DNA from: Gaiellales bacterium
GTDB lineage: Bacteria > Actinomycetota > Thermoleophilia > Gaiellales > Gaiellaceae
Direction of reading: 5' to 3'
DNA length: 64,000 bases
Assembly (NCBI GenBank): GCA_038209555.1
Contig: JBBQXP010000001.1
Coordinates: 68,728 to 132,727 of the forward strand
Part shown: positions 4,801 to 59,527 of the stretch, piece after piece
How positions within the stretch are numbered: the first letter of the stretch is position 1
Layout of the letters: each line of letters begins with the position of its first letter
Notes under the pieces: model-generated
What the model was told of the DNA's origin: nothing
What the model saw: only the letters and a program-made list of their open reading frames with translations
Databases searched by the model: none
Made by a program: the position numbers and the translations under genes

Positions 4801-5553
4801 CTACGGACTGACCTCGCGGACGTACGCAAGCGGGAATCCCCGGGAGCGCGCAGTGGCAAGACCGCTCTGGGCCGCGGCGACGGTGTCGTACACACCCGTG
4901 AACACGACGTAGTACCCGGGGTTCAATGTCAGGAAGTCGGATGAGTTCAGGATCCCGACGTTTGTAAGCCCGTTGGCGATCGCCTGGTTCGCCTTCCGCT
5001 CGGCGGCGGCGCGGCCCTTAGATGTCTCGACCGAGGCCAGTACGATTGTGTAGCCCTCCCTGCCCTGCGGCCAGGAGCGGATGTTCCCCGACTGGGTCGT
5101 CGTGACCGTCGTAGCCGTCGTCAGCGTGGAGGTGTCGAGCGTTGCGATCGTCTGCGTGGTCGGGCTCGTGATGGTCTCGATCGACGCGGTCGGGCCGTTG
5201 GTCTGGATTCCCGGGAGGGCTCCCACGGTGGCAGTCGTTCCGGGCCCGCGAGACACGAGTCGTCCCTTCTCATCGTCCTTGGTAGCGGCCACCGCCGCGA
5301 TCGCGCCGGCGACCAGCGCGACGAGAAAAAGCGCGAGGAGAGCCGCCCAGAGCCAGGCAGGGGAATCCCGCGACCACATCTCGGTCCGCATGAACGCGAC
5401 AGGGATCTGGGCGCCCGGCAGGCGCGCGCCGCACTCGAGACAATACTCTTGGTAGAGGTCGTGCGGCGCTCCGCAGCGCGGGCACGCAGGCGTTTCGGGC
5501 GGAGGCTCACTTGGAGCGCCGGGATCTGGTGGAAGGGGCGGCCGTGAGACCAC
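4801..5553 (-). CDS. zinc-ribbon / TM / SPOR-domain protein
   Basis: CPRCGAPHDLYQEYCLECG zinc ribbon, TM segment WLWAALLALFLVALVAGAIAAV, Thr-rich linker, SPOR-like C-terminus (YTIVLASV...GYYVVFTGVY). Start set at GTG 5553 (TAGTG overlap with upstream stop), not the ORF-track ATG 5784. Confidence 0.8.
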   Translation of the reverse strand: MVSRPPLPPDPGAPSEPPPETPACPRCGAPHDLYQEYCLECGARLPGAQIPVAFMRTEMWSRDSPAWLWAALLALFLVALVAGAIAAVAATKDDEKGRLVSRGPGTTATVGALPGIQTNGPTASIETITSPTTQTIATLDTSTLTTATTVTTTQSGNIRSWPQGREGYTIVLASVETSKGRAAAERKANQAIANGLTNVGILNSSDFLTLNPGYYVVFTGVYDTVAAAQSGLATARSRGFPLAYVREVSP

Positions 5554-6128
5554 TAGTCCTCGTTCGGCTCCTTGGCCCGCGGAGCTACGAGCGTCTGGTC
5601 CGCGCGCTCCTCCGTGTCGCCGAATTCGTCCGCCGCGACCGAGTTCCCGCAGGTGGAGCAGAAGTTCGCCTCGGCGGGGAGCGGATTTCCGCAGTGACCG
5701 CAGGCGACAACCGGCGCCGTCTCGGCTGCCGGTCGGCCGCAGTGGGCACAGAAGTGCGCTCCGCGGACGAGCGGGGCCCCGCACTTGCAGGGCGTCGCTA
5801 CTCGCATGCCCCGAGGAACGGCTTCGCTTGCCGCCAGGAACGCATCGAGCTCGTGGATGCGCCGCTCGAGCGCGAGCACCTCGGAGGCGCGGCTGACCAG
5901 CAATTCGGGCTTGAAGCGGTCGCGGCGCACCATCTCGACTGCCAACCCGCCGACGTCCCGCATCTCGATCTCGCGGCGGCGCGCCAGCGACCGGCGCTCG
6001 CGGAGCGCTGCCGCAGCCGTCAGCGGCGGCGCAGGATCGGGCGGTGGCATCTTCTCGCTCCCGTCGACCGCGAGTTCGGGCGGAGCAGGCGGCCTGCGAG
6101 CGAAGAGCGAGAAGCGACGGGCCGTCAT
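5553..6128 (-). CDS. double zinc-ribbon domain protein
   Basis: CKCGAPLVRGAHFCAHCG and CGHCGNPLPAEANFCSTCG repeats after a coiled-coil-like N-terminus. Translationally coupled to the SPOR gene. Confidence 0.75.
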   Translation of the reverse strand: MTARRFSLFARRPPAPPELAVDGSEKMPPPDPAPPLTAAAALRERRSLARRREIEMRDVGGLAVEMVRRDRFKPELLVSRASEVLALERRIHELDAFLAASEAVPRGMRVATPCKCGAPLVRGAHFCAHCGRPAAETAPVVACGHCGNPLPAEANFCSTCGNSVAADEFGDTEERADQTLVAPRAKEPNED

Positions 6129-7610: not shown

Positions 7611-8468
7611 GTGGGCCGCGAAATCAGCAGGGTTGGGGTGGTCGGGCTCGGCACGATGGGCGCCGGGATCGCCCAGGTCTGCGTGCAGGCCGGCTTCGAC
7701 ACGATCGGGGTCGAGGTGAGTGAAGACCTGTGCGAGCGGGCGCGCAGCACGATCGACCACTACCTCTCGCGGGGCGTCGAGAAGGGCCGGCTGAGTAACG
7801 AGGAGCGGGAGGCCGCGCTGGCTCGGCTGACGACGTCGACGCGCAGAGAGGATCTCGGCGACCGCGACCTGGTCATCGAGGCAATCGTCGAGGAGCTCGA
7901 GGCCAAGCAGGAGCTTTTCCGCGAGCTCGGCGGGATCGTGGGGACCGGTGTCGTCCTAGCCACGAACACGTCGGCGCTGTCGGTGACCGAGATCGCGTCG
8001 GCGGTCGAACGGCCCGAGCGGGTGGTGGGCCTGCACTTCTTCAATCCAGCACCGGTCCTCCAGCTGGTCGAGGTGGTGCGAACGGAGCTCACGTCGGACG
8101 AGGCGTACGTGCGCGTCTACCGGTTCGCCGAGGCTCTCGGGAAGGAGCCCGTCCGCTGCAACGACACGCCCGGCTTCGTCGTCAACCGGATCCTGATACC
8201 GCTTCTGAACGACTGCGTGCGCGTCCTTGACGAGGCGAGGGTGACGCCGGAGGACCTCGACCGGGCGATGCGGTTCGGAACGAACTGGCCGATCGGGCCT
8301 TGCGCGCTCCTCGACCTGATCGGACTCGACGTGCACGTGCACGCGAGCGAAGCGCTCCAGGAGAAGCTGGGCGAACCCAGGATGGCGCCCCCACCACGTC
8401 TCGTCAACATGGTGAAGACGGGCCATCTCGGCCGGAAGAGCGGGCGCGGTTTCTTCAACTACGAGTAG
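7611..8468 (+). CDS. 3-hydroxybutyryl/3-hydroxyacyl-CoA dehydrogenase
   Basis: Rossmann N-terminus VGVVGLGTMGAGIAQV, LHFFNPAPVLQLVEV, PGFVVNRIL. GTG 7611 gives a 285-aa protein of typical length. The upstream part of ORF 6735..8468 is antisense to the ALDH gene. Confidence 0.9.
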   Translation: MGREISRVGVVGLGTMGAGIAQVCVQAGFDTIGVEVSEDLCERARSTIDHYLSRGVEKGRLSNEEREAALARLTTSTRREDLGDRDLVIEAIVEELEAKQELFRELGGIVGTGVVLATNTSALSVTEIASAVERPERVVGLHFFNPAPVLQLVEVVRTELTSDEAYVRVYRFAEALGKEPVRCNDTPGFVVNRILIPLLNDCVRVLDEARVTPEDLDRAMRFGTNWPIGPCALLDLIGLDVHVHASEALQEKLGEPRMAPPPRLVNMVKTGHLGRKSGRGFFNYE

Positions 8469-8783: not shown

Positions 8784-10406
8784 GTGAGCCGGTCGCCCTC
8801 GTTCCCGAGTCACTGGATAGGAGGCGCCGTGGAACACCATGGTTCGGAGAGCTACTTCGTCGTCGGCGAGGGGTTGCTCACAGAGAGCGTCGGAGGGCGG
8901 GAACGCACGCTCTCGTCGGCTCTCGAGGCGCTGGCGCCGCCGTTTCGCTTCTCGCGGATGGGGCCGAACGGCATCAACCACCAGCTCGGCGAGCCCAGCC
9001 GGAAGAGGATCGCCAAAGCCATGACCGTAGGGGGTGGCGGTGCGTCCCAGATCCCTTCCGGCTTCACCTATCTCGGCCAGTTCGCGGACCACGATCTAAC
9101 GTTCGACAAGACGAGCGTCATGCTCGGTGAGAACGTCTCCCCGGCGCAGCTCCTGCAGGCGCGCTCGCCGAGCCTCGACCTCGATTCGCTCTACGGAGCC
9201 GGGCCTGCGGATCCAGGGTCGGCCAAGTTCTACGCCCCGGACGGTCTCCATCTGAAGGTCGGGAAGACACTCGCTGCCGAGGGGATCACGGCGAAGCAGG
9301 GCTTTGACCTTCCGCGCGGCGCCGGAACAACGGTGGCGAAGAAGCGCAAGGCGATCATTCCGGATCCGAGAAACGACGAGAACCTCGCGGTCGCTCAGAC
9401 CCATCTGGCGATGATGCGCTTTCACAACCGGGTTGTCGACACCCAGCTGGCCGCGGTGCCCCCCGCGCAGCGCTTCGACAAAGCTCGCGAGATCGTCACG
9501 AAGCATTACCAGTGGATGCTTCGAACCGATTATCTCCCCCGAATCTGCGCACCAGGCGTCGTGAACAACGTCTTCACGAACGGCAGGAAGGCGTTCGAGG
9601 TAGGAGTGTCACCGACCGACGTCCCGACGATGCCGATCGAGTTCTCGGTGGCCGCGTTCCGCCTAGGTCACTCGATGATCCGGAGCGCCTACAACTGGAA
9701 CAAGATCTTCGACGACGGCTTTGGCTCCCTCGACCTGCTGTTCGTGTTCTCCTCGACGGGCGGCGACCTCGGCGGCGGGCCCAGGCTCCCAAGCACCTGG
9801 ATCGCAGATTTCCGCCGGCTCTACGACTTCAAGGAGGCCGGCAAGGCCAACCTCGCCGTGCCGGAGAACAAGTTCAACCGGGCCAGGCGCATCGACACGA
9901 GGCTCGTCAATCCGCTGAAGAACCTTCCGGCCGGGTCATTCGGCGGCCCCGCGGTGCCGTTCAACGACCCGAGGGCCAACCTTGCCTTCCGCAACCTGGC
10001 TCGAGCGAAGATGGTACGGCTGGCGACCGGCCAGCAGATGGCGACGTTCCTGAAGAGCAAGGGAGTGACGCTGACCAAGCTCACGCAGGCGCAGATCCGG
10101 GACGGCAACAACGGCGCCGACCTCGACGCATTGACGCAGACGCAGCGTGCCGCGCTCCTCAAGGACACGCCGCTCTGGTTCTACATCCTCCGCGAGGCCG
10201 AGCTGAACGGAGGCAAGCTGAAGGGGGTCGGAGCGCGCATCGTCGCGGAGGCGTTTCACCGTGCCATGGAAGGCAGCCAAGCGTCGATCGTTCGTGACCC
10301 GACCTGGCATCCGACGCTCGGTCCGAACAGCTCGACCTTCCGGATGGTAGACCTGCTGCTGTTCGCATTCGAGGGAAAGAAGGCCCTGCTCGCTCCACTC
10401 GGGTAA
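8784..10406 (+). CDS. heme peroxidase, peroxidase-cyclooxygenase (animal heme peroxidase-like) superfamily
   Basis: FTYLGQFADHDLTFD (distal His region), AMMRFHNRVV (proximal His region), AAFRLGHSMIR. Alternative start GTG 8829 lies 4 nt after AGGAGG (8819-8824). Confidence 0.85.
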   Translation: MSRSPSFPSHWIGGAVEHHGSESYFVVGEGLLTESVGGRERTLSSALEALAPPFRFSRMGPNGINHQLGEPSRKRIAKAMTVGGGGASQIPSGFTYLGQFADHDLTFDKTSVMLGENVSPAQLLQARSPSLDLDSLYGAGPADPGSAKFYAPDGLHLKVGKTLAAEGITAKQGFDLPRGAGTTVAKKRKAIIPDPRNDENLAVAQTHLAMMRFHNRVVDTQLAAVPPAQRFDKAREIVTKHYQWMLRTDYLPRICAPGVVNNVFTNGRKAFEVGVSPTDVPTMPIEFSVAAFRLGHSMIRSAYNWNKIFDDGFGSLDLLFVFSSTGGDLGGGPRLPSTWIADFRRLYDFKEAGKANLAVPENKFNRARRIDTRLVNPLKNLPAGSFGGPAVPFNDPRANLAFRNLARAKMVRLATGQQMATFLKSKGVTLTKLTQAQIRDGNNGADLDALTQTQRAALLKDTPLWFYILREAELNGGKLKGVGARIVAEAFHRAMEGSQASIVRDPTWHPTLGPNSSTFRMVDLLLFAFEGKKALLAPLG

Positions 10407-14658: not shown

Positions 14659-15606
14659 TTGGCCGTGCGGACGGAGGAGCTCGACTACGACCTACCGCCC
14701 GAGCTGATCGCGCAACGGCCGCTCGAGCGGCGGGATGAGAGTCGCCTGCTCGTGTACGAGCGCTCGACCGGAACGGTACGCCACCGGGTCTTCCATGAGC
14801 TTCCCGCCGAGCTCGGGCGAGGCGAGCTCCTGGTCGTCAACGACACCCGCGTGGTTTCCGCCCGTATCCACACGCGCAGGCCGGGTGGGGGCAAGGCCGA
14901 GATCCTTCTGCTGGAGCCGCTCGGGGACGGTGTCTGGGAGGCGCTCGCACGCCCGTCCCGCAAATTGCGAGCAGGTATGCAGCTTCGACCCGTGGAGCTC
15001 TTGGAGGCTCTCGGCGAGGGTCGCTGGCTCGTGCGGCTCGAAGGCAAGGCAGGCGGGGAGACGCCGCTCCCGCCGTATATCACCGAGCCCCTTGCCGATC
15101 CCGAGCGGTACCAGACGGTTTACGGAGAAGAGCTCGGCTCGGCCGCCGCACCCACGGCTGGACTGCACTTCACAATCGACCTCCTGGCCCGCTTCGAGGT
15201 CGAGCGGGTCACGCTCCATGTGGGGCTGGACACGTTCCGCCCCATCGCAGCCGAGTCGCTCGCGGAGCATGCGATCCACAGCGAGCGCTATGAGGTGGAT
15301 GCGGTCGCCTGGGAACGCATCCAGGCTGCCGAGCGCGTCTGCGCCGTGGGAACGACGACCGTGCGCGTGCTGGAGTCTCTGGCCCGCGGCGCCGAACTCG
15401 TTGGTCGCACGAATCTGTTCGTGACTCCAGGCTTCGAGTTCAGTCGTGTGGATGCTCTCGTCACGAACTTCCACCTGCCGCGCTCGTCGCTACTCGCCCT
15501 CGTGATGGCGTTCGCCGGGGTGGAGCAGACCAGGCAGCTGTACGAGCTTGCGATCGCAGAGCGATATCGCTTTTACTCGTTCGGCGACGCGATGCTGATT
15601 CTCTAG
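14659..15606 (+). CDS. queA: S-adenosylmethionine:tRNA ribosyltransferase-isomerase
   Basis: LDYDLPPELIAQRPLERRDESRLLV and C-terminal YRFYSFGDAMLI. GTG 14665 (7 nt after GGAGG) is an alternative start. Confidence 0.9.
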   Translation: MAVRTEELDYDLPPELIAQRPLERRDESRLLVYERSTGTVRHRVFHELPAELGRGELLVVNDTRVVSARIHTRRPGGGKAEILLLEPLGDGVWEALARPSRKLRAGMQLRPVELLEALGEGRWLVRLEGKAGGETPLPPYITEPLADPERYQTVYGEELGSAAAPTAGLHFTIDLLARFEVERVTLHVGLDTFRPIAAESLAEHAIHSERYEVDAVAWERIQAAERVCAVGTTTVRVLESLARGAELVGRTNLFVTPGFEFSRVDALVTNFHLPRSSLLALVMAFAGVEQTRQLYELAIAERYRFYSFGDAMLIL

Positions 15607-15644
15607 CCGGTTGATCGGCAATCCGCGCATACCGGTCATGTCTA
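15604..15644 (+). repeat. possible degenerate mini-copy of the palindromic intercistronic repeat
   Basis: TAGCCGGTTGATCGGCAAT... begins with the queA TAG stop and shares an exact 10-mer GGTTGATCGG with the copy-B left end. The right side TACCGGTCATGTCTA weakly resembles the repeat right end. Confidence 0.3.
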
Positions 15645-19979: not shown

Positions 19980-20376
19980 GCCCGAGGAGGGGTCGGTAAA
20001 GGACCTCTTCGAAAAGACGCTCCTCGCAGCCCTCGGCGCCGTGGTGCTCACGAAGGAGCGAGCCGACGATCTCGCGGAGGAGCTGACGAAACGCGGCCGC
20101 ATGACCGGCGAGGAAGCGCGCGAGGTCGTCGACGAGCTCACGCATAGGTGGCGGGGAGACGCCATGCGCTTCAGCGAGCGCGCCGGCTCGACGATCTCCA
20201 GCCTTTCCCGTGAGCTCGGGCTTGTCACGCGGCGCGAGTGGGAGGAGCTCGAGCTGCGGCTGGCCCAGGTCGAGCACCGCCTCAGGCTCCTCGAGGGCCA
20301 GCCCGCGTCCGCTCGCGGGGCGAGGCCGGCGAAACCCGCACCCGGGCCGTCAAACCTCCCGCCAGAGCCCAGATGA
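19963..20376 (+). CDS. phasin-like protein (PHA synthesis regulator phasin family)
   Basis: ATG 19963 overlaps the secDF end. LFEKTLLAALGAVVLTKERADDLAEELTKRG and LGLVTRREWEELELRLAQVEHRL resemble COG3937-type phasins. Confidence 0.7.
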   Translation: MAAPGEPEEGSVKDLFEKTLLAALGAVVLTKERADDLAEELTKRGRMTGEEAREVVDELTHRWRGDAMRFSERAGSTISSLSRELGLVTRREWEELELRLAQVEHRLRLLEGQPASARGARPAKPAPGPSNLPPEPR

Positions 20377-20430
20377 TCTGCTTGGTCTGACCCGTCTCCG
20401 CGGGTACGCCAATTACCGAGCAATCATCTA
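20371..20430 (+). repeat. internally deleted 60-nt derivative of the palindromic intercistronic repeat (copy D)
   Basis: AGATGAT...CTTGGTCTGACCCGTC (exact 16-mer shared with copy B)...CGCCAATTACCGAGCAATCATCTA. The upstream TGA stop (20374-20376) lies inside its left terminus. Confidence 0.75.
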
Positions 20431-23698: not shown

Positions 23699-24403
23699 AT
23701 GGCAGGGGAGGCGGTGCTGGTGGTCGAGCGGGAGGCTCCGGTCAGGGCGTTCCTCGAGCAGCAGCTCACGGACGACGGGTACGAGGTGCTCTCCACCGAG
23801 CGGGCGCGCCAGGCGCTCGAGCTGGTCGAGGAGGCTCGGCCGGACCTTGTGCTTCTCGATGCGGTCCTCCCGGACGGTTCGGGCTTCGAGCTCTGCAGTC
23901 GGCTCCGTGAAGGTGAGCCCGGCCGCGTCTGGAACCGCGATGTTCCGGTCATCATGGTGAGCTCACGCAGCGAGCCCGTCGACCGGGTCCGCGGCTTCGC
24001 ACGTGGCTGCGACGACTACGTCCCGATGCCGTTCGTCTACGAGGAGCTCCTGGCCCGCATCCGTGCTGTGCTCAGGCGTGCGGCCGGACCCCGGCGGGCG
24101 CTGCTCGAGGTCAGGGGGTTGACCATCGATCTGGCGTCGCGCAGCGTGCGAGTCGAGGGCGAATCCGTGGCGCTCTCGGCGAAGGAGTACGACCTTCTCG
24201 TCGCGCTGGCCGAGGATCCGGAGCGTGTGTTCGGAAAGGAGGAGCTCCTCCGGGACGTCTGGGGCTTCCGGTCACTCGGGCGCACCAGGACCCTCGACTC
24301 GCACGCAAGCCGTCTCCGCCGCAAGTTGAACCGCGGTAACGAGGCCGCGTTCGTTCTGAACGTGTGGGGAGTCGGCTACCGACTCGTCGCTCCCGGTGCC
24401 TGA
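23699..24403 (+). CDS. OmpR-family response regulator, atypical receiver, no adjacent kinase
   Basis: Receiver plus winged helix (VWGVGYRL). VVEREAP replaces the acidic DD/DE pair and DDYVPMPF replaces DDYxTKPF. Confidence 0.85.
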   Translation: MAGEAVLVVEREAPVRAFLEQQLTDDGYEVLSTERARQALELVEEARPDLVLLDAVLPDGSGFELCSRLREGEPGRVWNRDVPVIMVSSRSEPVDRVRGFARGCDDYVPMPFVYEELLARIRAVLRRAAGPRRALLEVRGLTIDLASRSVRVEGESVALSAKEYDLLVALAEDPERVFGKEELLRDVWGFRSLGRTRTLDSHASRLRRKLNRGNEAAFVLNVWGVGYRLVAPGA

Positions 24404-45187: not shown

Positions 45188-46561
45188 GTGCGCCCGCCGC
45201 GCGAACCCTTCCGGATCAAGATGGTCGAGCCCGTCCGTGCAACGACGCGGCCCGAGCGCCAGGACGCGCTCGAGGCGGCCGGATGGAACCCGTTCCAGCT
45301 TGCGGCTTCTGACGTCGAACTCGATCTCCTGACCGACTCCGGCACGGGTGCCATGAGCCAGGATCAGTGGTCGGCGCTCATGCGAGGCGATGAGTCCTAC
45401 GCCGGCTCGCGCAGCTTCGCGCGTTTCCGCGACGCCGTCCGGGAGGTGCTCGGATTTCCCTACGTCGTGCCGACCCATCAGGGACGGGGAGCCGAGAGCG
45501 TCTTCTTTGGCGCCGTCATCGACCCAGGTGAGATCGTGCCGTCGAACGCGCACTTCGACACGACGCGCGCCCACATCGAGTTGCGTGAGGGTATCGCGCT
45601 GGATCTTCCCATTCCGGCCGCCCTGGATTCCGGTGGGGATTACCCGTTCAAGGGAAACCTCGACGTCGACGCCCTCGGCCACTTGCTCGAGAGTGAGGAC
45701 GGGGACCGAGTCTCGATCGTCATGTTGACGCTCACGAACAACGCGGGCGGCGGCCAGCCCGTCTCGATGGAGAACATCGCGGCCACCGCAGGGCTGGCCC
45801 GGAAGCATGGCAAGAAGCTCGTCCTGGACATCGCTCGCTTTGCGGAGAACGCGTGGTTCATCCGGGAGCGCGAGGCCGGGTTTGCAGATGTTCCGCTGCC
45901 TGAGATCGTCCTGCGGAGCTTGGCGGAGGCGGACGCCGTGCTCATGAGCGCAAAGAAGGACGCGATCGCGAACATCGGCGGCTTCGTGGCGATCCGTGAC
46001 GATGAGGAGTTCTTCCATCGCCTCCAGGCTCGGGGGATCGTGTTCGAGGGATTCCCGACGTACGGCGGCCTCGCCGGCCGCGACCTCGAGGTGATCGCTG
46101 TCGGCCTCCGGGAAGTGCTCGACGAGGAGTACCTCCGTCACCGGATCGGCCAGGTGGCATATCTCGGCCACGTGCTCCTCGAGGCCGGCGCGAGCGTCCT
46201 CCAGCCGTTCGGCGGACACGCGGTCTACCTCGACGCCACTCCGATGCTCCCGGCTATTCCAGTCGAACAGTTCCCGGCGCAGGCCCTCTCGTGCGCTCTC
46301 TATCTCGAGGGTGGAGTCCGCGGCGTCGAGATCGGCTCCGTCATGGCCGGGCGGGATCCCGTGACCGGTGAGAACCGTCGGCCGCCGCTCGAGCTTGTTC
46401 GCCTCGCTGTGCCTCGGCGCGTCTACACCTCGCGCCAGCTCGAGCAGGCTGCGGATGCCGCCGCGGCGGTGGTCGCGAACGCCGGGTCGATACGGGGGCT
46501 CGAGATCGTCGCGGAGGCACCCGTCCTCAGACACTTCACCGCCCGCTTCCAGCCGATCTGA
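45188..46561 (+). CDS. tryptophanase / tyrosine phenol-lyase family beta-eliminating lyase
   Basis: EPFRIKMVEPVRATT, LLTDSGTGAMS, THQGRGAE, PLP-lysine region SAKKDAIANIGG. Aligns from the N-terminus with TnaA-type enzymes. Confidence 0.88.
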   Translation: MRPPREPFRIKMVEPVRATTRPERQDALEAAGWNPFQLAASDVELDLLTDSGTGAMSQDQWSALMRGDESYAGSRSFARFRDAVREVLGFPYVVPTHQGRGAESVFFGAVIDPGEIVPSNAHFDTTRAHIELREGIALDLPIPAALDSGGDYPFKGNLDVDALGHLLESEDGDRVSIVMLTLTNNAGGGQPVSMENIAATAGLARKHGKKLVLDIARFAENAWFIREREAGFADVPLPEIVLRSLAEADAVLMSAKKDAIANIGGFVAIRDDEEFFHRLQARGIVFEGFPTYGGLAGRDLEVIAVGLREVLDEEYLRHRIGQVAYLGHVLLEAGASVLQPFGGHAVYLDATPMLPAIPVEQFPAQALSCALYLEGGVRGVEIGSVMAGRDPVTGENRRPPLELVRLAVPRRVYTSRQLEQAADAAAAVVANAGSIRGLEIVAEAPVLRHFTARFQPI

Positions 46562-46579
46562 CGCGCGCTTCACTCGCCG

Positions 46580-46605
46580 CGCACCAAGTACCAATCAACC
46601 ATCTA
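46580..46605 (+). repeat. solo right-end fragment of the palindromic intercistronic repeat (copy E)
   Basis: CGCACCAAGTACCAATCAACCATCTA versus copy B CACGCCAATTACCGATCAACCATCTA, with an exact 12-mer ATCAACCATCTA. Lies 12 nt upstream of the gcvT GTG. Confidence 0.55.
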
Positions 46606-46617
46606 GGATCCGCCGCG

Positions 46618-47649
46618 GTGCAGACGGCACGCCGAACGCCCCTCTACGAGCGCCACACGGCGCTCGGCGCGCGCATCGTGGACTTCGCAGGCTGGGAGAT
46701 GCCGGTGCAGTACACGGGCATCCAGGAGGAGCACCGCGCGGTTCGGACGTCCGCGGGCGTCTTCGACGTCTCGCACATGGGCCAGCTCGAGCTGTCCGGC
46801 GCCGGAGCCCACGACTACCTCCAAGCACGGCTCTCCAACGATCTCGACCGGATCGGCGACGGGCGGGCCCAGTACACGCTCCTGACCAATGACCGGGGCG
46901 GGATCACGGACGACCTCATCGCGTATAGGCGCGGCGACGACGACTACCTGCTCGTCGTGAACGCATCGAATGTCGAGCCGGATCACGCGGCACTCCCTGA
47001 CACGACCGACGTCTCCGATCGTTATGCCCTTCTGGCCGTCCAGGGGCCCGAGGCGCTCGAGCGGCTCGGGCTCCAGCTGGAGCCGTTCACCTTCCGGGAG
47101 GACGACGTGCTTGGCGTCCGGTGCCTGGTCGCAGGGACCGGCTACACGGGTGAACGCGGCTGCGAGCTGGGCTGTGATCCCGACGACGCCGTCCGGCTCT
47201 GGGACGCGATCCTTGCGTGCGGAGTCGTCCCTTGCGGTCTCGGCGCCCGCGACACGCTACGCCTCGAGGCCTGTTACCCGCTTCACGGAAACGACATCTC
47301 ACCGGAGCGAACGCCGATCGAGGCGGGACTCGGCTGGGCGTGCGCGCTCGAGAAGGAGTTCACCGGTGTCGACGTGCTCAGGCGTCAGAAAGAAGAGGGC
47401 ACGGCCGAGCGCCTGGCCGCCTTCGTGCTGGAGGACAAGGGCATCCCCCGGCAGGGGATGAAGGTCATCGAGCCACCCGGTGAGGTCACCTCCGGCTCCC
47501 TCTCCCCGATGCTCGGCATCGGGATCGGGCTTGCCTACGTGCCGACCGGGTTCGCCGAGCCCGGAACGACGATCAGCGTCGACCTCCGCGGACGACTGCG
47601 AAAGGGGCATATCGTGAAGAAGCCGATCTACAAGCGAGAGGGGACGTAA
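46618..47649 (+). CDS. gcvT: glycine cleavage system aminomethyltransferase T
   Basis: [42 protein letters not shown]. Confidence 0.93.
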
Positions 47650-47651
47650 GG

Positions 47652-48044
47652 GTGGCAGCCGCAGAGAGCTATCCCGAAGGGCTGAAGTACCACCCCGAGC
47701 ACGACTGGGCGAAGGTGGACGGCGACACGGCGACCATCGGGATCACCTGGTACGCCCAGGACGCGCTCGGCGAGATCGTGCACTTCGAGCCCCCGGAACA
47801 GGGAAGCTCCGTCGCCAAGGACGAGAGCTACGGAGAGGTCGAGTCGGTGAAGGCCGTATCCGACCTCGTCTCGCCGCTCTCCGGCGAGGTGACCGAGGTA
47901 AACCAGGCAGTCGTAGACGAGCCCGAGACGATCAACGAGGAGCCCTACGGGGATGGCTGGCTCATCAAGGTGCGGCTCTCGGATCCCTCGGAGGTCGATG
48001 GGCTTCTCGACGTCGCTGCCTACAAGGAACTGCTCACAGAGTAG
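47652..48044 (+). CDS. gcvH: glycine cleavage system protein H
   Basis: HDWAKVDGDTATIGIT and lipoyl-lysine motif ESVKAVSD. Confidence 0.93.
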   Translation: MAAAESYPEGLKYHPEHDWAKVDGDTATIGITWYAQDALGEIVHFEPPEQGSSVAKDESYGEVESVKAVSDLVSPLSGEVTEVNQAVVDEPETINEEPYGDGWLIKVRLSDPSEVDGLLDVAAYKELLTE

Positions 48045-48208
48045 ATGGCCGATCGACAATTACCGCACCCACGGATGGCGGCCCAGACACGGCGCCAGGC
48101 CGCACCCTCGCCCTTGGCAAGGCTTCTAGCCTTGCCCGCGGACGATGGCACCCCCTGGCTTGGTCTGGCCCGTCCCCGCGGGCACGCCAATAACCGATCG
48201 TCCATCTA
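48042..48208 (+). repeat. palindromic intercistronic repeat, full copy A (167 nt)
   Basis: Aligns end to end with 51040-51206 and with the reverse complement of 55825-55985. Begins with the gcvH stop TAG and ends 1 nt before the gcvPA GTG. Confidence 0.9.
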
Positions 48209-49543
48209 GTGAGCTACCTCTCCCTCACGGACGCCGACCGCGAGGCGATGCTCGAAGCGATCGGCGTCTCGTCCGTGGACGAGCTCTTCCGAGACATCCC
48301 GAAGAGCCTGCGCCTCGACCGTCCCCTCGCCCTGGAGCCGGCCCTTTCGGAGCAGGAGCTCGTCGAGCACCTCTCCGAGCTAGCGGCGAAGAACGTGTCC
48401 GTCTCGGAGGAGCTCTCGTTCCTCGGGGCTGGGATGTACGACCACTACGTTCCCGCGGTGGTCGACGCGATGCTCGCGCGCGGCGAGTTCCTGACAGCCT
48501 ACACGCCCTACCAGCCGGAGATGAGTCAGGGCGTCCTGCAGGCCATCTTCGAGTACCAGACAGTGATCTGCGAGCTGACCGGCATGGACGTCTCGAACGC
48601 ATCCGGCTACGACGGAACGACCGTTGCCGCCGACGCCTGCTACGTCGCCAAGTACGTCACCGGGCGGACCAAGGTCGTCCTCGCCGAGACGTTGAATCCG
48701 CAGACCCGGCAGGTCGTGAAGACGTATGCACCGGGGTTCGGGCTCGACGTCGTGGAGGTGCCGCATCGCGACGGCGTCGTTGACCCGGACGAGCTCCGGC
48801 GCGCCGCGGAGAATGCCGCGTGCGTCATCTTCCAGCAACCCAACTTCTTCGGCTGCCTCGAGCCGGCTCCCGATCTGGCTGCGGCGGCCAACGACGCCGA
48901 GGCGCTCGCGGTCGCCCATGTCGATCCGCTCTCCTTGGGTGTTCTGGAGGCACCGGGTGCCTATGGGTGCGCGATCGCGATCGGCGAGGGCCAGGGTGCC
49001 GGGAACTACCTCTCCTACGGCGGCCCGCATTACGGCTTCTTCGCAGCCCGGAAGGACTTCATCCGCCGGATGCCAGGCCGGATCATCGGTGAGACGACCG
49101 ACCTGGACGGCGAGCGTGGATTCGTCCTGACGCTACAAACGCGCGAGCAACACATCCGTCGCGAGAAGGCGACCCACAACATGACCACGAACCAGACGCT
49201 TCTCGCCCTGGCCGGCCTGATCTATCTGAGCTGGCTGGGTCCGCAGGGGCTCAGGGAGGTGGGCGAGACCTGCATGGGTCTCGGGGCCTACGCGAAGGAG
49301 CAACTCGGGCTCCAACCGGTGTTTCCAGATCAGACAACGTTCAAGGAGTTTGCCGTCCGCGTCGGACGGAGCGGCCAGGACGCGATCCGCGCCGCCCGCG
49401 AGCGCGGCGTCCATCCGGGATATGCGCTTGGCCGCGACTACCAGGGCTTGGACGATGCCCTGCTCGTCTGCGTGACAGAGAAGCGGACGCCGGCGGACAT
49501 CGACCGTTTGGCCGCCGTCTTGCAGGAGGTCGCGGCGGCGTGA
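48209..49543 (+). CDS. gcvPA: glycine dehydrogenase (decarboxylating) subunit 1
   Basis: N-terminus SYLSLTDADREAMLEAIGVSSVDELFRDIP matches the GcvPA start. Split P-protein arrangement. Confidence 0.92.
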   Translation: MSYLSLTDADREAMLEAIGVSSVDELFRDIPKSLRLDRPLALEPALSEQELVEHLSELAAKNVSVSEELSFLGAGMYDHYVPAVVDAMLARGEFLTAYTPYQPEMSQGVLQAIFEYQTVICELTGMDVSNASGYDGTTVAADACYVAKYVTGRTKVVLAETLNPQTRQVVKTYAPGFGLDVVEVPHRDGVVDPDELRRAAENAACVIFQQPNFFGCLEPAPDLAAAANDAEALAVAHVDPLSLGVLEAPGAYGCAIAIGEGQGAGNYLSYGGPHYGFFAARKDFIRRMPGRIIGETTDLDGERGFVLTLQTREQHIRREKATHNMTTNQTLLALAGLIYLSWLGPQGLREVGETCMGLGAYAKEQLGLQPVFPDQTTFKEFAVRVGRSGQDAIRAARERGVHPGYALGRDYQGLDDALLVCVTEKRTPADIDRLAAVLQEVAAA

Positions 49544-51039
49544 AGCTGATCTTCGAGAAGTCGCAATCTGGGCGCCGCGCCTCGCGCGTGCCGCGTTCCG
49601 ACCTGCCCAAGGTCGACATCCCGGAAGGGCTCCGGCGCGAGCGGCTTCCGCGGCTGCCCGAACTCGCCGAGCCCGAGGTCGTCAGGCACTTCACGGCGCT
49701 CGCCGATCGGACCTTCGGCGTTGACACGGGGTTCTACCCGCTCGGCTCGTGCACGATGAAGCACAACCCGCGGGTGAACGAGCGCCTCGTCATGCTGCCG
49801 GGCTTCCGCGATCTGCACCCACACCAGGAGGAGGAGGGATCGCAGGGCGCGCTCGAGCTGATGTGGCGGCTGCAGCAGATCCTCGCAGAGGTGGCGGGGC
49901 TCGACGCGGTCTCGCTCCAGCCTGCAGCCGGTTCACAGGGAGAGCTCACCGGGCTCATGCTCATGCGGGCCTACTTCGCCGACCGAGGCCAGGGCGAGCA
50001 GCGGACGACCGTGATCACCGCGGACACGGCCCACGGCACGAACCCTGCGAGCGTGACGATGTCGGGCTACCAGCTCAAGAAGGTCGAGACGGACGAGCGT
50101 GGGAACCTCGACCTCGATGACCTCCGCGCCAAGGTCGATGAAAGCACGGCCGGACTCATGCTCACGAATCCCTCGACGCTCGGCCTCTTCGACGAGCACA
50201 TCGAGGAGGTCGCGGAGATCTTCCACGATGCTGGAGCGCTCCTGTATTACGACGGCGCGAACCTGAACGCGGTCTGCGGCATCTCGCGCCCCGGTGATAT
50301 GGGCTTCGACATCATCCACTACAACCTCCACAAGACCTTCTCGCAACCGCATGGCGGGGGCGGGCCCGGCGGTGGGCCGGTGGCCGTGCGGGAGATTCTC
50401 GAGCCCTTCCTGCCCGCGCCGACGATCGTCCAGGAGGGCGATGCGTTCCGGCTCGACTACGACCGACCGAAGTCGATCGGCAAGGTCCGCGGCTTCTGCG
50501 GGCCGTTCGGCGTCTTCGTACGCTCCTACGCGTTTATCCGCGCGTACGGGCCGGGGCTCCGAGCCATGTCCGAGGCTGCCGTCCTGAACGCGAACTACAT
50601 GCTGGCAGGCCTCAGGGAGGTCTACGAGCTTCCGTTCGACCGGCTCTGCATGCACGAGTTCGTGCTCTCGGCACGCGGCCTGAAGCGGGAGCACGGCGTT
50701 AGCGCCCTCGATGTGGCCAAGCGGCTCATGGACTACGGATTCCACCCGCCGACGGTCTACTTTCCGCTGATCGTGCCCGAGGCACTCATGATCGAGCCGA
50801 CGGAGACGGAGGCGAAGGAGACGCTGGACGACTTCGTCGAGGCCATGCGGTCGATCGCCCGGGAGGCCGCCGAGGACCCCGGCTTGGTGAAGGACGCGCC
50901 CCATAGCCGGCCCGTTCGCCGGCTCGATGAGGTCAAGGCCGCGAAGCGCGCGATCGTCAAGTATGGGTTCGAGGAGCACCCAGACCTGTCCGGTCGGCCC
51001 GCCGCGGGTGAGGCGCTCGAGGCACAGAAGGGCGCTTAG
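49540..51039 (+). CDS. gcvPB: glycine dehydrogenase (decarboxylating) subunit 2
   Basis: LGSCTMKHNP and PLP-lysine region NLHKTFSQPHGGGGPG. GTGA overlap with gcvPA. Confidence 0.92.
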   Translation: MKLIFEKSQSGRRASRVPRSDLPKVDIPEGLRRERLPRLPELAEPEVVRHFTALADRTFGVDTGFYPLGSCTMKHNPRVNERLVMLPGFRDLHPHQEEEGSQGALELMWRLQQILAEVAGLDAVSLQPAAGSQGELTGLMLMRAYFADRGQGEQRTTVITADTAHGTNPASVTMSGYQLKKVETDERGNLDLDDLRAKVDESTAGLMLTNPSTLGLFDEHIEEVAEIFHDAGALLYYDGANLNAVCGISRPGDMGFDIIHYNLHKTFSQPHGGGGPGGGPVAVREILEPFLPAPTIVQEGDAFRLDYDRPKSIGKVRGFCGPFGVFVRSYAFIRAYGPGLRAMSEAAVLNANYMLAGLREVYELPFDRLCMHEFVLSARGLKREHGVSALDVAKRLMDYGFHPPTVYFPLIVPEALMIEPTETEAKETLDDFVEAMRSIAREAAEDPGLVKDAPHSRPVRRLDEVKAAKRAIVKYGFEEHPDLSGRPAAGEALEAQKGA

Positions 51040-51206
51040 TAGATGGTTGATCGGTAATTGCCGCACCCCCGGATGGCGGCCCAGACACGGCGCCAGGCCG
51101 CACCCTCGCCCTTGTCAAGGCTTCTAGCCTTGCCTGCGGACGATGGCGCACCCTGGCTTGGTCTGACCCGTCCCCGAGGTCACGCCAATTACCGATCAAC
51201 CATCTA
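51040..51206 (+). repeat. palindromic intercistronic repeat, full copy B (167 nt, perfect 21-nt termini)
   Basis: TAGATGGTTGATCGGTAATTG...CAATTACCGATCAACCATCTA. Central hairpin CAAGGCT-TCT-AGCCTTG. Starts right after the gcvPB TAG and ends 2 nt before the next GTG. Confidence 0.92.
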
Positions 51207-51208
51207 AC

Positions 51209-51811
51209 GTGCGCCGGCTCGGGATTATCCACCGTTGGGACGGCGCGCCGGGCGCGGACTGGTATCCGTGGCTCCGGGACGAGCTTCGCGCGCTCGATCC
51301 GGCTCCCTTCGACGCGATCGGGATTCCGGAGCTGCCCGACCCGGGTACCCCTCGGCCAGAGGCATGGGTGCCCGCGCTCCTGGAATGGCTCGGAGACGAC
51401 GCACGGGATCGAGCCGCAACGGTGCTCGCCGGTCACAGCGTCGGGTGCCAGACGATCGCCAGGGCGCTCGCCGAGGGCGGTCCTCCCGTCGAAGGCTGTC
51501 TCCTGGTTGCACCCTGGTTCTGGCTCGACGAGGAGGAGCGGGACGAGACGAGCGAGCTCTGGGCGACGCCTTTCGACGACGCAGCCGCGCGTGCCGCAGC
51601 CGGCAAGGTCGTTGCCCTGCTCTCGACGGACGACCCCTACACCTCGGACTGGGAAGCCAACGGCCGGGCATGGGAAGAGCGAATCGGGGCGGAGGTGGTC
51701 GTCGAGCCCGGCGGGGAGCACTTCACCGGGGAGCGCGAGCCGAAGGTGCTCGAGCTCCTGCTGGAGCGCTTCGGGCGCGCTGCTCGCAAGCCTCAAGTCC
51801 GGGCATCGTGA
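51209..51811 (+). CDS. YdeN/RBBP9-like serine hydrolase (alpha/beta fold)
   Basis: GIIHRWDGAPGADWYPWL and nucleophile elbow GHSVG. About 200 aa, as in the family. Confidence 0.8.
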   Translation: MRRLGIIHRWDGAPGADWYPWLRDELRALDPAPFDAIGIPELPDPGTPRPEAWVPALLEWLGDDARDRAATVLAGHSVGCQTIARALAEGGPPVEGCLLVAPWFWLDEEERDETSELWATPFDDAAARAAAGKVVALLSTDDPYTSDWEANGRAWEERIGAEVVVEPGGEHFTGEREPKVLELLLERFGRAARKPQVRAS

Positions 51812-55568: not shown

Positions 55569-55823
55569 CTACTCGCGGATCTCGAGCGTCCGAACCCCTC
55601 CAAGGTCGATCCATGTGCGACCGGGTGCGCGCACGATGCGAAAAAGGACGCTCGAGCACGTCCGGCAGCGGACAACTGTTCCAGGCGCACGCAGGTAGAC
55701 CACTACTTCGGCGATGGGACCGATCGCCCCGCACGCTCTGCATACCACCGTCGAGACGGTCATCTCGATGCCAAAGATCTCGAGAAGCTCGCCTCCGATC
55801 GCGTTTCCGTCCAGGTCAATCAT
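55569..55823 (-). CDS. small CxxC...CxxC protein resembling the DUF6510 family
   Basis: MIDLDGNAIGGELLEIFG...CRACGA...YLRAPGTVVRCRTC. Last gene of the Moco/FAD oxidoreductase operon. Confidence 0.75.
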   Translation of the reverse strand: MIDLDGNAIGGELLEIFGIEMTVSTVVCRACGAIGPIAEVVVYLRAPGTVVRCRTCSSVLFRIVRAPGRTWIDLGGVRTLEIRE

Positions 55824-55824
55824 C

Positions 55825-55985
55825 TAGATGGTTGGTCGGTAATTGGCGTGCCCGCGGGGGCGGGCCAGACCAAGCCAGGGTGTGCCATCGCCCGTAGGCA
55901 AGGCTAGAAGCCTTGACAAGGGTGAGGGTGGGCGCCGTGTCTGGGCCGCCATCCGAGGGTGTGGTAATTGTCGATCAAACATCTA
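55825..55985 (-). repeat. palindromic intercistronic repeat, full copy C (161 nt, minus-strand orientation)
   Basis: The reverse complement aligns with copies A and B with one 6-nt deletion. Its first 3 nt are the stop TAG (55985-55983) of the upstream minus-strand gene. It ends 1 nt before the ATG at 55823. Confidence 0.9.
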
Positions 55986-59480: not shown

Positions 59481-59527
59481 GTGCGCCAGGGTAGATGCTG
59501 GCGGAGCGCCGGAGGTAGGCTGACCCG

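Follow-up and report, generated by a model that had tools for sequence, protein, structure and literature searches.

What is the 167-nucleotide (nt) palindrome that fills the gap between the stop codon of one gene and the start codon of the next in operons of a Gaiellaceae bacterium, and how can it sit there? The question is raised by positions 51040-51206 of a 64,000-nt stretch of a Gaiellales genome (GenBank assembly GCA_038209555.1, contig JBBQXP010000001.1, positions 68,728 to 132,727 of the forward strand), hereafter the window. Gaiellaceae are abundant, almost uncultured soil actinobacteria, and to our knowledge no mobile repeats have been described for them. The repeat is, with high confidence, a mobile non-autonomous element, that is, a MITE (a miniature transposable element with inverted repeats), probably of the IS630/Tc1-mariner type. 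The fuller statement, that this MITE is sited at stop codons and harmless by design in one orientation, is on balance probable.

Three full-length copies had been proposed from the letters alone, and all three are borne out. Copy A (48042-48208, plus strand) lies between gcvH (47652-48044) and gcvPA (48209-49543), copy B (51040-51206, plus strand, the element first noted) between gcvPB (49540-51039) and a Ser_hydrolase-family gene (51209-51811), and copy C (55825-55985, minus strand, shortened in frame by a 6-nt deletion) in a minus-strand operon, between a gene for an FAD/NAD-binding oxidoreductase and a DUF6510 gene. Over about 167 nt they align end to end at 90% mean column identity, and an nhmmer profile derived from them finds each copy (E = 1e-53 to 1e-58), with no comparable match in the rest of the window (67% G+C). 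The perfect 21-nt inverted repeat at the termini of copy B (TAGATGGTTGATCGGTAATTG / CAATTACCGATCAACCATCTA) and its central hairpin CAAGGCT-TCT-AGCCTTG are likewise seen in the sequence. The unit is predicted to fold as the sequence-only reading had proposed, the sense RNA of copy B forming a single long hairpin of -93.6 kcal/mol (z = -9.5 against dinucleotide shuffles).

The edges of these copies meet those of the genes, as had also been claimed. At the left edge of copy A the gcvH TAG is the element's first three nt, and the gcvPA GTG follows at 48209. The upstream stop directly precedes copy B, with a GTG start 2 nt beyond the element. Copy C, inverted together with its operon, has TAG as its first three nt and an ATG 1 nt beyond its end. 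Direct inspection of the window copies found no purine-rich, Shine-Dalgarno-like run within the element's last 20 nt, in keeping with the earlier remark that the downstream genes lack such a site. No tRNA lies nearby.

Truncated derivatives had also been suggested, and here the outcome is mixed. An internally deleted derivative at 20371-20430 (plus strand) is clear: a left-end remnant, AGATGATCT, is fused to the element's 3' 51 nt, matching the 3' half at 46/51 positions (E = 5e-11), and the TGA of the upstream open reading frame (ORF) falls within the remnant. The fragments placed near 46580-46605 and 15604-15644 are weaker. One resembles a solo right end (46573-46605, plus strand), between a stop at 46559-46561 and the gcvT start at 46618; the other resembles a left end (15604-15621, plus strand), where an upstream TAG stop is followed by an exact GGTTGATCGGCAAT. 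With scores of 30 and, for 15608-15621, 28, against a best of 26 in 1416 random 65-nt windows, both are probable, if weak, element end remnants.

Beyond the window, a genome collection (one genome per species) was scanned for an exact 20-mer from the left arm, GGATGGCGGCCCAGACACGG; copy counts are therefore lower bounds. The scan returned 58 loci (cited here as L and a number), 48 of them from Gaiellaceae metagenome-assembled genomes (MAGs) or MAGs labelled uncultured Actinomycetes. A profile search then gave at least 46 further full copies in six Gaiellaceae MAGs, about 93-95% identical to the 167-nt consensus. Including the three in the window, the family numbers 49 full copies of 161-170 nt at 48 independent sites (L006 and L049 are orthologous), or 78 matches in the compared DNA if redundant contigs are counted. 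A single fragmented MAG carries more than 30 copies. In Gaiellaceae the units are single and dispersed, and tandem arrays were not found. The 20-mer also occurs exactly in ten loci of other phyla (including L008, L017, L023, L032, L033, L036, L040, L042 and L051), slightly above an estimated 1-3 chance hits. These are rejected as family members, being unrelated sequence without a surrounding palindromic element. Past the 20-mer, L008, L033 and L036 have similar flanks and look like one conserved protein-coding gene.

The suggestion that the family was undescribed stands for every resource consulted. Rfam gave no gathering-score match in the window, and for copy A at E<=10 the best hit was a chance miRNA match (E = 8.5); PLSDB plasmids, searched by BLAST with the consensus, held no match; and the published literature searched held no description of anything similar.

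Evidence of mobility comes from orthologous sites, compared on contigs whose GcvH is 92-97% identical to that of the window. Site A (gcvH/gcvPA) is empty in every such relative, the two genes overlapping as GTGA, and is filled in the window lineage only (L166-L168). Site B (gcvPB/hydrolase) is filled in most lineages and empty in L160, L161 and L169. At site C the window and L171 carry a copy, whereas L169 is empty and has the junction gcatcTAGATGgag. Two further comparisons run in the other direction, with an empty TA target in the window and a filled orthologue elsewhere. At 5553-5554 the window has a stop/start overlap, gacTAgtgg (gacTAgtggtctc), and the filled allele in L031 reads ...TA[GATGG...CCATC]TAgtggtctc; at 59515-59516 the empty ggaggTAggctg corresponds to a filled site in L048. 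In these two clean pairs there is one TA when the site is empty and a TA at both ends of the insert when it is filled, for a net gain of 165 nt, or 55 codons. The comparison at site C agrees with TA duplication. Across copies the base preceding the left TA is mostly C, and the base following the right TA is G or A.

The assignment to MITEs follows from the inverted termini, the small size, the TA-flanked polymorphic insertion, the deletion derivatives and the lack of an internal gene. The element is multi-copy and has no internal transposase gene, and the only frame inside it is a low-complexity ORF of 54 codons. Deletion derivatives occur in L003 (47 nt) and L016 as well as at 20371-20430. 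A TA-duplicating MITE had been one of the first explanations offered, and the two clean pairs and site C uphold it; the rider that such an element is tolerated only at stop/start junctions proved too strong. The insertion context is often cTAg, as it is for IS630 itself, which is a lead rather than a test.

Several sites show details of their own. The 47-nt derivative in L003 (3659-3706) consists of the two termini alone, and at L016 (4192-4260) terminal fragments are nested within a composite; both loci show that the element undergoes internal deletion and end-to-end rearrangement. At site B, L159 has an 11-nt extra stretch (about 9222-9232), acATACATCTACatg, containing CATCTA, where L160 and L161 are empty and L162 and L163 filled. 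It is a possible excision footprint or deletion remnant, although small indels in long-read assemblies may be errors. The site B orthologues of L139-L163 and L171 have derived changes in common, CCCAGACGCTGCGCC, that are absent from window copy B. Copy B may have inserted at this site independently, or another copy may have converted it. In the filled alleles of site C the DUF6510 gene opens with codons that look like the left end of the element (TAGATGGTTG for L171 and TAGATGaTTGA for the window), and 10-11-nt direct repeats flank the insert (window 55800-55825, L171 about 7620-7645); the empty allele of L169 reads TAGATGGAGCAC at the DUF6510 start.

Where the copies lie relative to genes was examined with a codon-usage caller trained on the long ORFs of these loci, which reproduced the gcv operon and the relatives' called genes. 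Among the 42 copies with both neighbours called, 29 lie co-oriented between co-directional genes and 2 lie reversed between such genes (binomial p = 5e-7), with 6 more between convergent and 5 between divergent genes. The sequence-only reading had every copy between co-directional genes, with orientation following transcription. The first part holds within the window and fails family-wide, where 11 of 42 copies separate convergent or divergent genes; the second survives as a strong bias and not as a universal rule. Replication direction does not account for the orientation, since copies A and B face the other way from C although all three lie within 8 kb.

In about three-quarters (30) of 39 copies, a co-oriented gene upstream has its stop codon between 11 nt inside and 2 nt before the element start. 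Most commonly this stop is formed by the element's own first three bases, and in six cases the gene extends to a TGA at nt 9-11. For comparison, only 34 of the 783 TA dinucleotides in the window (4%) touch a stop codon, and genes contain 78% of them. The stop-codon location reflects the loss of insertions within genes together with target preference, and probably something more. On the other side, a downstream start lies within 4 nt of the element end in about 16 of the 29 operonic copies, arranged as TAGTG, TAG-ATG, TGATG or TAATG.

Between these two edges runs a reading frame. In the consensus, the frame (f0) begins with an ATG at nt 4-6, stays open for 54 codons and ends in a stop made of the second TA and the next base. 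As the net insertion is 55 codons, a frame starting next to the rebuilt upstream stop finishes precisely at the original junction. Its ends overlap the flanking stop and start, as TAG-ATG on the left and TAGTG, TAG-ATG, TGATG or TAATG on the right. In copy A (48045-48209, plus strand) the ATG abuts the gcvH TAG, and after 54 codons comes a TAG whose G also begins the gcvPA GTG. In copy C (55824-55982, minus strand) the ATG follows the upstream TAG, and 52 codons later a TAG is followed at once by the downstream ATG; the 6-nt deletion preserves the frame. In copy B (plus strand) a TAA at codon 5 interrupts the frame, which is opened again by an in-frame ATG at 51073 and then runs to the TAA at 51205-51207. 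In the reverse orientation, the equivalent start meets a TAA at codon 5.

Across the family, nearly every copy keeps f0 open from its ATG through to the end, and the exceptions are unevenly placed. The frame runs open through the element in 26 of 29 operonic copies, compared with 5 of 14 clearly non-operonic ones (Fisher p = 5e-4), and all three losses of the ATG are outside operons. Where the right end reads TG, the next base is A in 12 of 13 copies, so that the stop is kept as TGA; where it reads TA, the next base is g in 15 copies, a in 6 and c in 2 (Fisher p = 3e-4 for the contrast). Among site B orthologues, TAA and TGA alternate as the terminal stop. Selection does not act on the peptide itself: the three codon positions have similar numbers of variant states (38/43/41), with no sign of protein-level constraint.

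These features suggest how an operon might accommodate the element. Insertion at a TA within a stop codon, or within a stop/start overlap, would separate the downstream start from its Shine-Dalgarno sequence in the end of the upstream gene. The element's first base, G, would rebuild the upstream stop (TA+G), with the TGA at nt 9-11 closing a second frame, and the ATG at nt 4-6 would be offered right behind the rebuilt stop, downstream of the old Shine-Dalgarno sequence. A ribosome ending the upstream gene could then restart, melt a weakened hairpin and read 54 codons. The frame would end on the second TA copy (as TAG, TAA or TGA), overlapping or abutting the downstream start, and termination-reinitiation would be passed on. 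A reversed copy, by comparison, would have its frame shut after four codons and would cover both stop and start with a near-perfect mRNA stem of more than 60 bp; we infer that the closed frame and this hairpin cause reversed copies to be lost from operons. Copies at stop codons would persist since, in the co-oriented direction, the element's design makes it harmless. The mobilising enzyme is presumably an IS630/Tc1-mariner-type transposase encoded elsewhere. Whether the relay is functional we judge to be close to an even call, leaning slightly to no.

The hairpin that such a ribosome would have to melt differs between the two strands, a feature missed in the earlier account. For copy B the predicted minimum free energy (MFE) is -117.6 kcal/mol antisense to the genes against -93.6 in the sense strand; over the 49 copies the means are -114.7 and -83.7 kcal/mol, with the same sign in 49 of 49. 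RNAalifold finds a hairpin of 62 pairs on the antisense strand and 40 on the sense strand. At the same 62 pairs, 98.8% of alignment cells hold a standard pair in the antisense reading, compared with 84.1% in the sense reading. Pairs changed on both sides number 11 antisense (2.5 in shuffles, none of 500 as high) and 14 sense (7.9 in shuffles), and the roughly 208 one-sided changes on the antisense strand all retain G·U. Cells that are G·U antisense, and hence A·C in the mRNA, number 453, the converse class only 7. About 10 base pairs are an A·C mismatch in the mRNA strand and G·U in the other, and the sense hairpin is therefore weaker by about 25-30 kcal/mol. The terminal helix of 23 pairs is conserved over the 49 copies. 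As a property of the predicted folds, the strand asymmetry is established as real.

Several possible causes were weighed. One standard mutational asymmetry, deamination of the coding or lagging-template strand while exposed, would give the opposite sign. The host genomes' own bias towards C over G at four-fold sites of coding strands (0.467 against 0.381 in the called genes of the window and of the loci with full copies, L001-L058) has the right sign and is much weaker than the 5:1 seen here. Private variants, found in at most 3 copies, comprise 35 of the A·C-in-mRNA type, 7 of the G·U-in-mRNA type and 23 of transversion type, alike in operonic and other contexts. The two classes disruptive to the mRNA hairpin are thus frequent and the mild one scarce. 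This pattern fits selection for a weaker sense hairpin better than selection that keeps the antisense hairpin, which should also remove transversions. Over a longer time, the master sequences have retained a near-perfect antisense hairpin.

Diverged relatives share part of this plan. Two subfamilies were found in three additional MAGs: subfamily 2 at L005 3589-3758, L041 1342-1509, L045 1-71 and L055 356-523, and subfamily 3 as a single copy at L011 2337-2506. At 168-170 nt, with TA/TAG ends, they keep the single-hairpin plan of the main family, and their terminal and central sequences are largely different from it. Common to all subfamilies are the extreme termini TAGAnGG..TGAT and a two-part internal core. 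The left core, GGATGGCGGCCCAGACACGGCGC, is shared, a conservation forced by the search pattern. The right core, GCTTGGTCTG(G/T)G(C/A)CG(T/C)CCCC (GCTTGGTCTGkGmCGyCCCC), lies outside the search pattern and is conserved nonetheless, with 2-3 of 20 positions differing from the main family. The two cores pair imperfectly, and their arm-specific differences are conserved between subfamilies, which hints that the mobilising enzyme, or some other factor, may use the core as its recognition site. The predicted MFE is again lower antisense (-121 to -125 kcal/mol) than sense (-98 to -100), with 8-11 G·U pairs against 3. Subfamily 3 retains the ATG-to-TAG frame, the conserved core being read in a different register.

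A bolder version of the favoured reading sees two opposing selections behind all of this, one strand needing a near-perfect hairpin and the host needing a weakly folded, translatable mRNA. The hairpin strand would serve propagation or recognition via the two-part core, and the conflict would be settled by the roughly 10 G·U/A·C positions together with the 55-codon ATG-to-stop relay, as one adaptive design shared by three subfamilies. We regard this extension as speculative and rather unlikely.

A number of observations weigh against the proposed explanation. On the side of mobility, site A shows a net gain of 168 nt instead of 165, and its empty allele (ccgaGTGAgctacc) lacks a TA; the filled allele is compatible with a direct repeat of 3 nt, AGT, and a fixed-length insertion model fails there. 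With the extra triplet the GTG start of gcvPA is restored, whereas an insertion of 165 nt into TGA would have destroyed it. The two flanking dinucleotides are discordant in about half of the copies, and 8 copies begin GAGATGG, 5 of them with a TA just upstream, a misfit to the simple TA model. The data also fit an element that bears its own terminal TA. No transposase with matching termini was found, nor any further terminal-repeat pair, in the window or in about 1.2 Mb of compared DNA; for the window, the absence of a transposase was checked only indirectly, via terminal-repeat matches, and the same approach, used to seek an autonomous element in the compared DNA, returned deletion derivatives only. 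On the side of the frame, internal stops in f0 are not significantly depleted (4.1 expected, 2 observed), and the terminal stop, with part of the correlation between open frames and operons, follows automatically from insertion into a TAG or TAA stop. Copy B has its premature TAA. In subfamily 2 the frame is closed by a TGA at nt 58-60, yet the left end lies on the stop codon of a co-oriented gene; the open frame cannot therefore be the only cause of the orientation bias. Lastly, the neighbouring genes rest on our own codon-usage caller and not on standard annotation.

A rival reading is a purely selfish MITE, one whose frame is an untranslated accident of GC-rich sequence and whose orientation bias and stop-codon location result only from a cTAg preference, genic purging and the polar harm done by the near-perfect other-strand hairpin. 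By our own estimate, a 54-codon frame would be open by chance in roughly 0.3 of frames at 67% GC; the undepleted internal stops, the even variation over codon positions, the unchanged orientation of subfamily 2 and an antisense hairpin stronger by 25-30 kcal/mol all suit this reading. It does not explain why several features coincide, with an ATG directly behind the rebuilt stop, a net length that comes to exactly 55 codons and, where the downstream gene starts, a terminal stop. Nor does it account for a right-end change of TA to TG that is tolerated almost only where TGA results, for losses of the ATG and frame that concentrate in non-operonic copies, or for an end-to-end frame in another register in subfamily 3. 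It is a serious alternative, although an unlikely one. The translational-coupling cassette suggested at the outset has indirect support: the ATG/stop geometry, the 165-nt net length, the kept terminal stop and the frame-operon correlation speak for it, and the orientation of subfamily 2 without an open frame does not. A further rival, a dispersed small-protein gene family with the 54-residue peptide as its product, can point to a frame that is open in most copies. However, variation is even over codon positions, the reading frame across the core changes between subfamilies and is closed in subfamily 2, the peptide is rich in Arg, Pro and Ala, as expected from GC-rich non-coding sequence, and a search with it found only 3 related proteins called among 5.8 billion, none a transposase. 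This reading is effectively refuted.

Two other readings turn on structure rather than on translation. The antisense strand could carry a selected structure, either as folded single-stranded DNA (HUH/RAYT- or attC-like) or as an antisense structured RNA, with the two-part core as its recognition site. The near-complete pairing (98.8% of cells), the one-sided changes that all retain G·U and the excess of doubly compensated pairs favour it, as do the return of the asymmetry in subfamilies with different stem sequence, the arm-specific differences conserved in the core, and the fact that an apparent TA duplication could also arise from an element's own terminal TA inserted 3' of a TA. Against this, orientation tracks transcription and not the replichore, no promoter or antisense transcript is known, and the conservation of the left core is forced by the search pattern. 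Among private variants, the transversion type (23), which breaks both strands, shows no depletion against the G·U-preserving type (35), the only rare class being the one with a mild effect on the mRNA hairpin (7), and an integron, RAYT or Y1 transposase context was not seen, no RAYT-aimed search having been made. We consider such a structure quite improbable, and an RNA-processing module marginally more so. In the latter, the hairpin in the polycistronic transcript would be cut by RNase III, as in Correia elements, or would expose an RNase E site, as in ERIC, and so uncouple the stability of the cistrons. The predicted hairpin exceeds 60 bp and has the upstream stop and the downstream start at its base, which would suit this, and Correia and ERIC provide precedent (PMC10969869, PMC2229807). 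However, the operon orientation gives the weaker, mismatch-rich hairpin, which looks more like avoidance of double-stranded RNA, and copies at convergent or divergent junctions have no cistrons to separate.

Comparison with known repeats places the family more precisely. RUP of Streptococcus pneumoniae and other IS630/Tc1-mariner MITEs are also 100-200 bp long, with terminal inverted repeats, a TA on both sides, many copies and no transposase of their own (PMC2229807). The termini of RUP match IS630-Spn1, whereas a parent insertion sequence was not found for the Gaiellaceae element; RUP also has no reading frame and no reported orientation lock, shares no sequence similarity and belongs to another host phylum. 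Correia (NEMIS) elements of Neisseria resemble the Gaiellaceae family in their terminal TA, co-transcription with neighbours and inverted-repeat long hairpin. They pair mainly through terminal repeats of 24-26 bp, carry integration host factor (IHF) and promoter motifs and are documented RNase III substrates, whereas here the entire 167 nt is one hairpin and the operon orientation pairs weakly. ERIC and YPAL of enterobacteria and Yersinia are likewise whole-length imperfect palindromes of 127-168 bp with a contiguous frame (56 residues in the 168-bp YPAL) that adjoin stop codons and have orientation-dependent effects. The effect described for them, unlike the proposed relay, is an RNase E-dependent destabilisation of the upstream transcript; no start/stop bridge between two cistrons has been described, and there is no sequence relation.

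The translational logic has a parallel in MIRU, actinobacterial intercistronic repeats whose ORF ends overlap the adjacent genes of a polycistron (PMC3184786), the same logic as in the proposed relay. MIRU differ in being 40-100 bp long, often tandem (as variable-number tandem repeats) and found in Mycobacterium, without a long hairpin, clear terminal inverted repeats or TA duplication. REPIN and REP sequences, mobilised by RAYT, are likewise intergenic hairpin repeats at gene ends with compensatory stem changes and strand-specific folding, but REP are palindromes of 20-40 bp tagged GTAG or CGTC, without target duplication. A REPIN identity is ruled out by the single 167-nt hairpin, the TA flanks and the mostly cTAG contexts; a RAYT gene was not looked for. 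Integron attC sites are also rejected, the copies being dispersed in housekeeping operons (gcvT-H-PA-PB) rather than arrayed as cassettes beside intI, and the termini reading TAGATGG / CCATCTA where R''/R' read RYYYAAC / GTTRRRY. The family is distinct from RUP, Correia, ERIC/YPAL and MIRU by sequence, host and anatomy, and joins features that have been described separately. The relay frame combined with the strand-asymmetric hairpin is the part that could be a new variant if shown experimentally.

Were the relay true, the family would be a clear natural case of a transposable element keeping translational coupling over its own insertion, extending the MIRU observation to a bona fide MITE and offering a compact intercistronic cassette. 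Were the opposing selections also true, the orientation lock, the stop-codon location and the strand asymmetry would be one adaptive design. The asymmetric hairpin is in addition a caution, as comparative RNA-structure methods would name the antisense strand 'the RNA'. More practically, the family fragments short-read assemblies and marks strain-level polymorphism in core operons. For example, the GcvH of the window is identical to a protein of a soil-metagenome MAG whose contigs break inside copy A (L166, L167). Short-read contigs that terminate within copies include L166, 126 nt past gcvH, as well as L167, L010 and L050. A metagenome scan with GcvH returned relatives at 65-79% identity only, none with the element and all too distant for junction comparison.

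One further palindrome in the window was set aside: a 16-nt perfect inverted repeat at 24144-24159 / 24291-24306, its arms separated by 131 nt, does not belong to the family and looks like chance. It sits in the C-terminal part of a response-regulator-like ORF.

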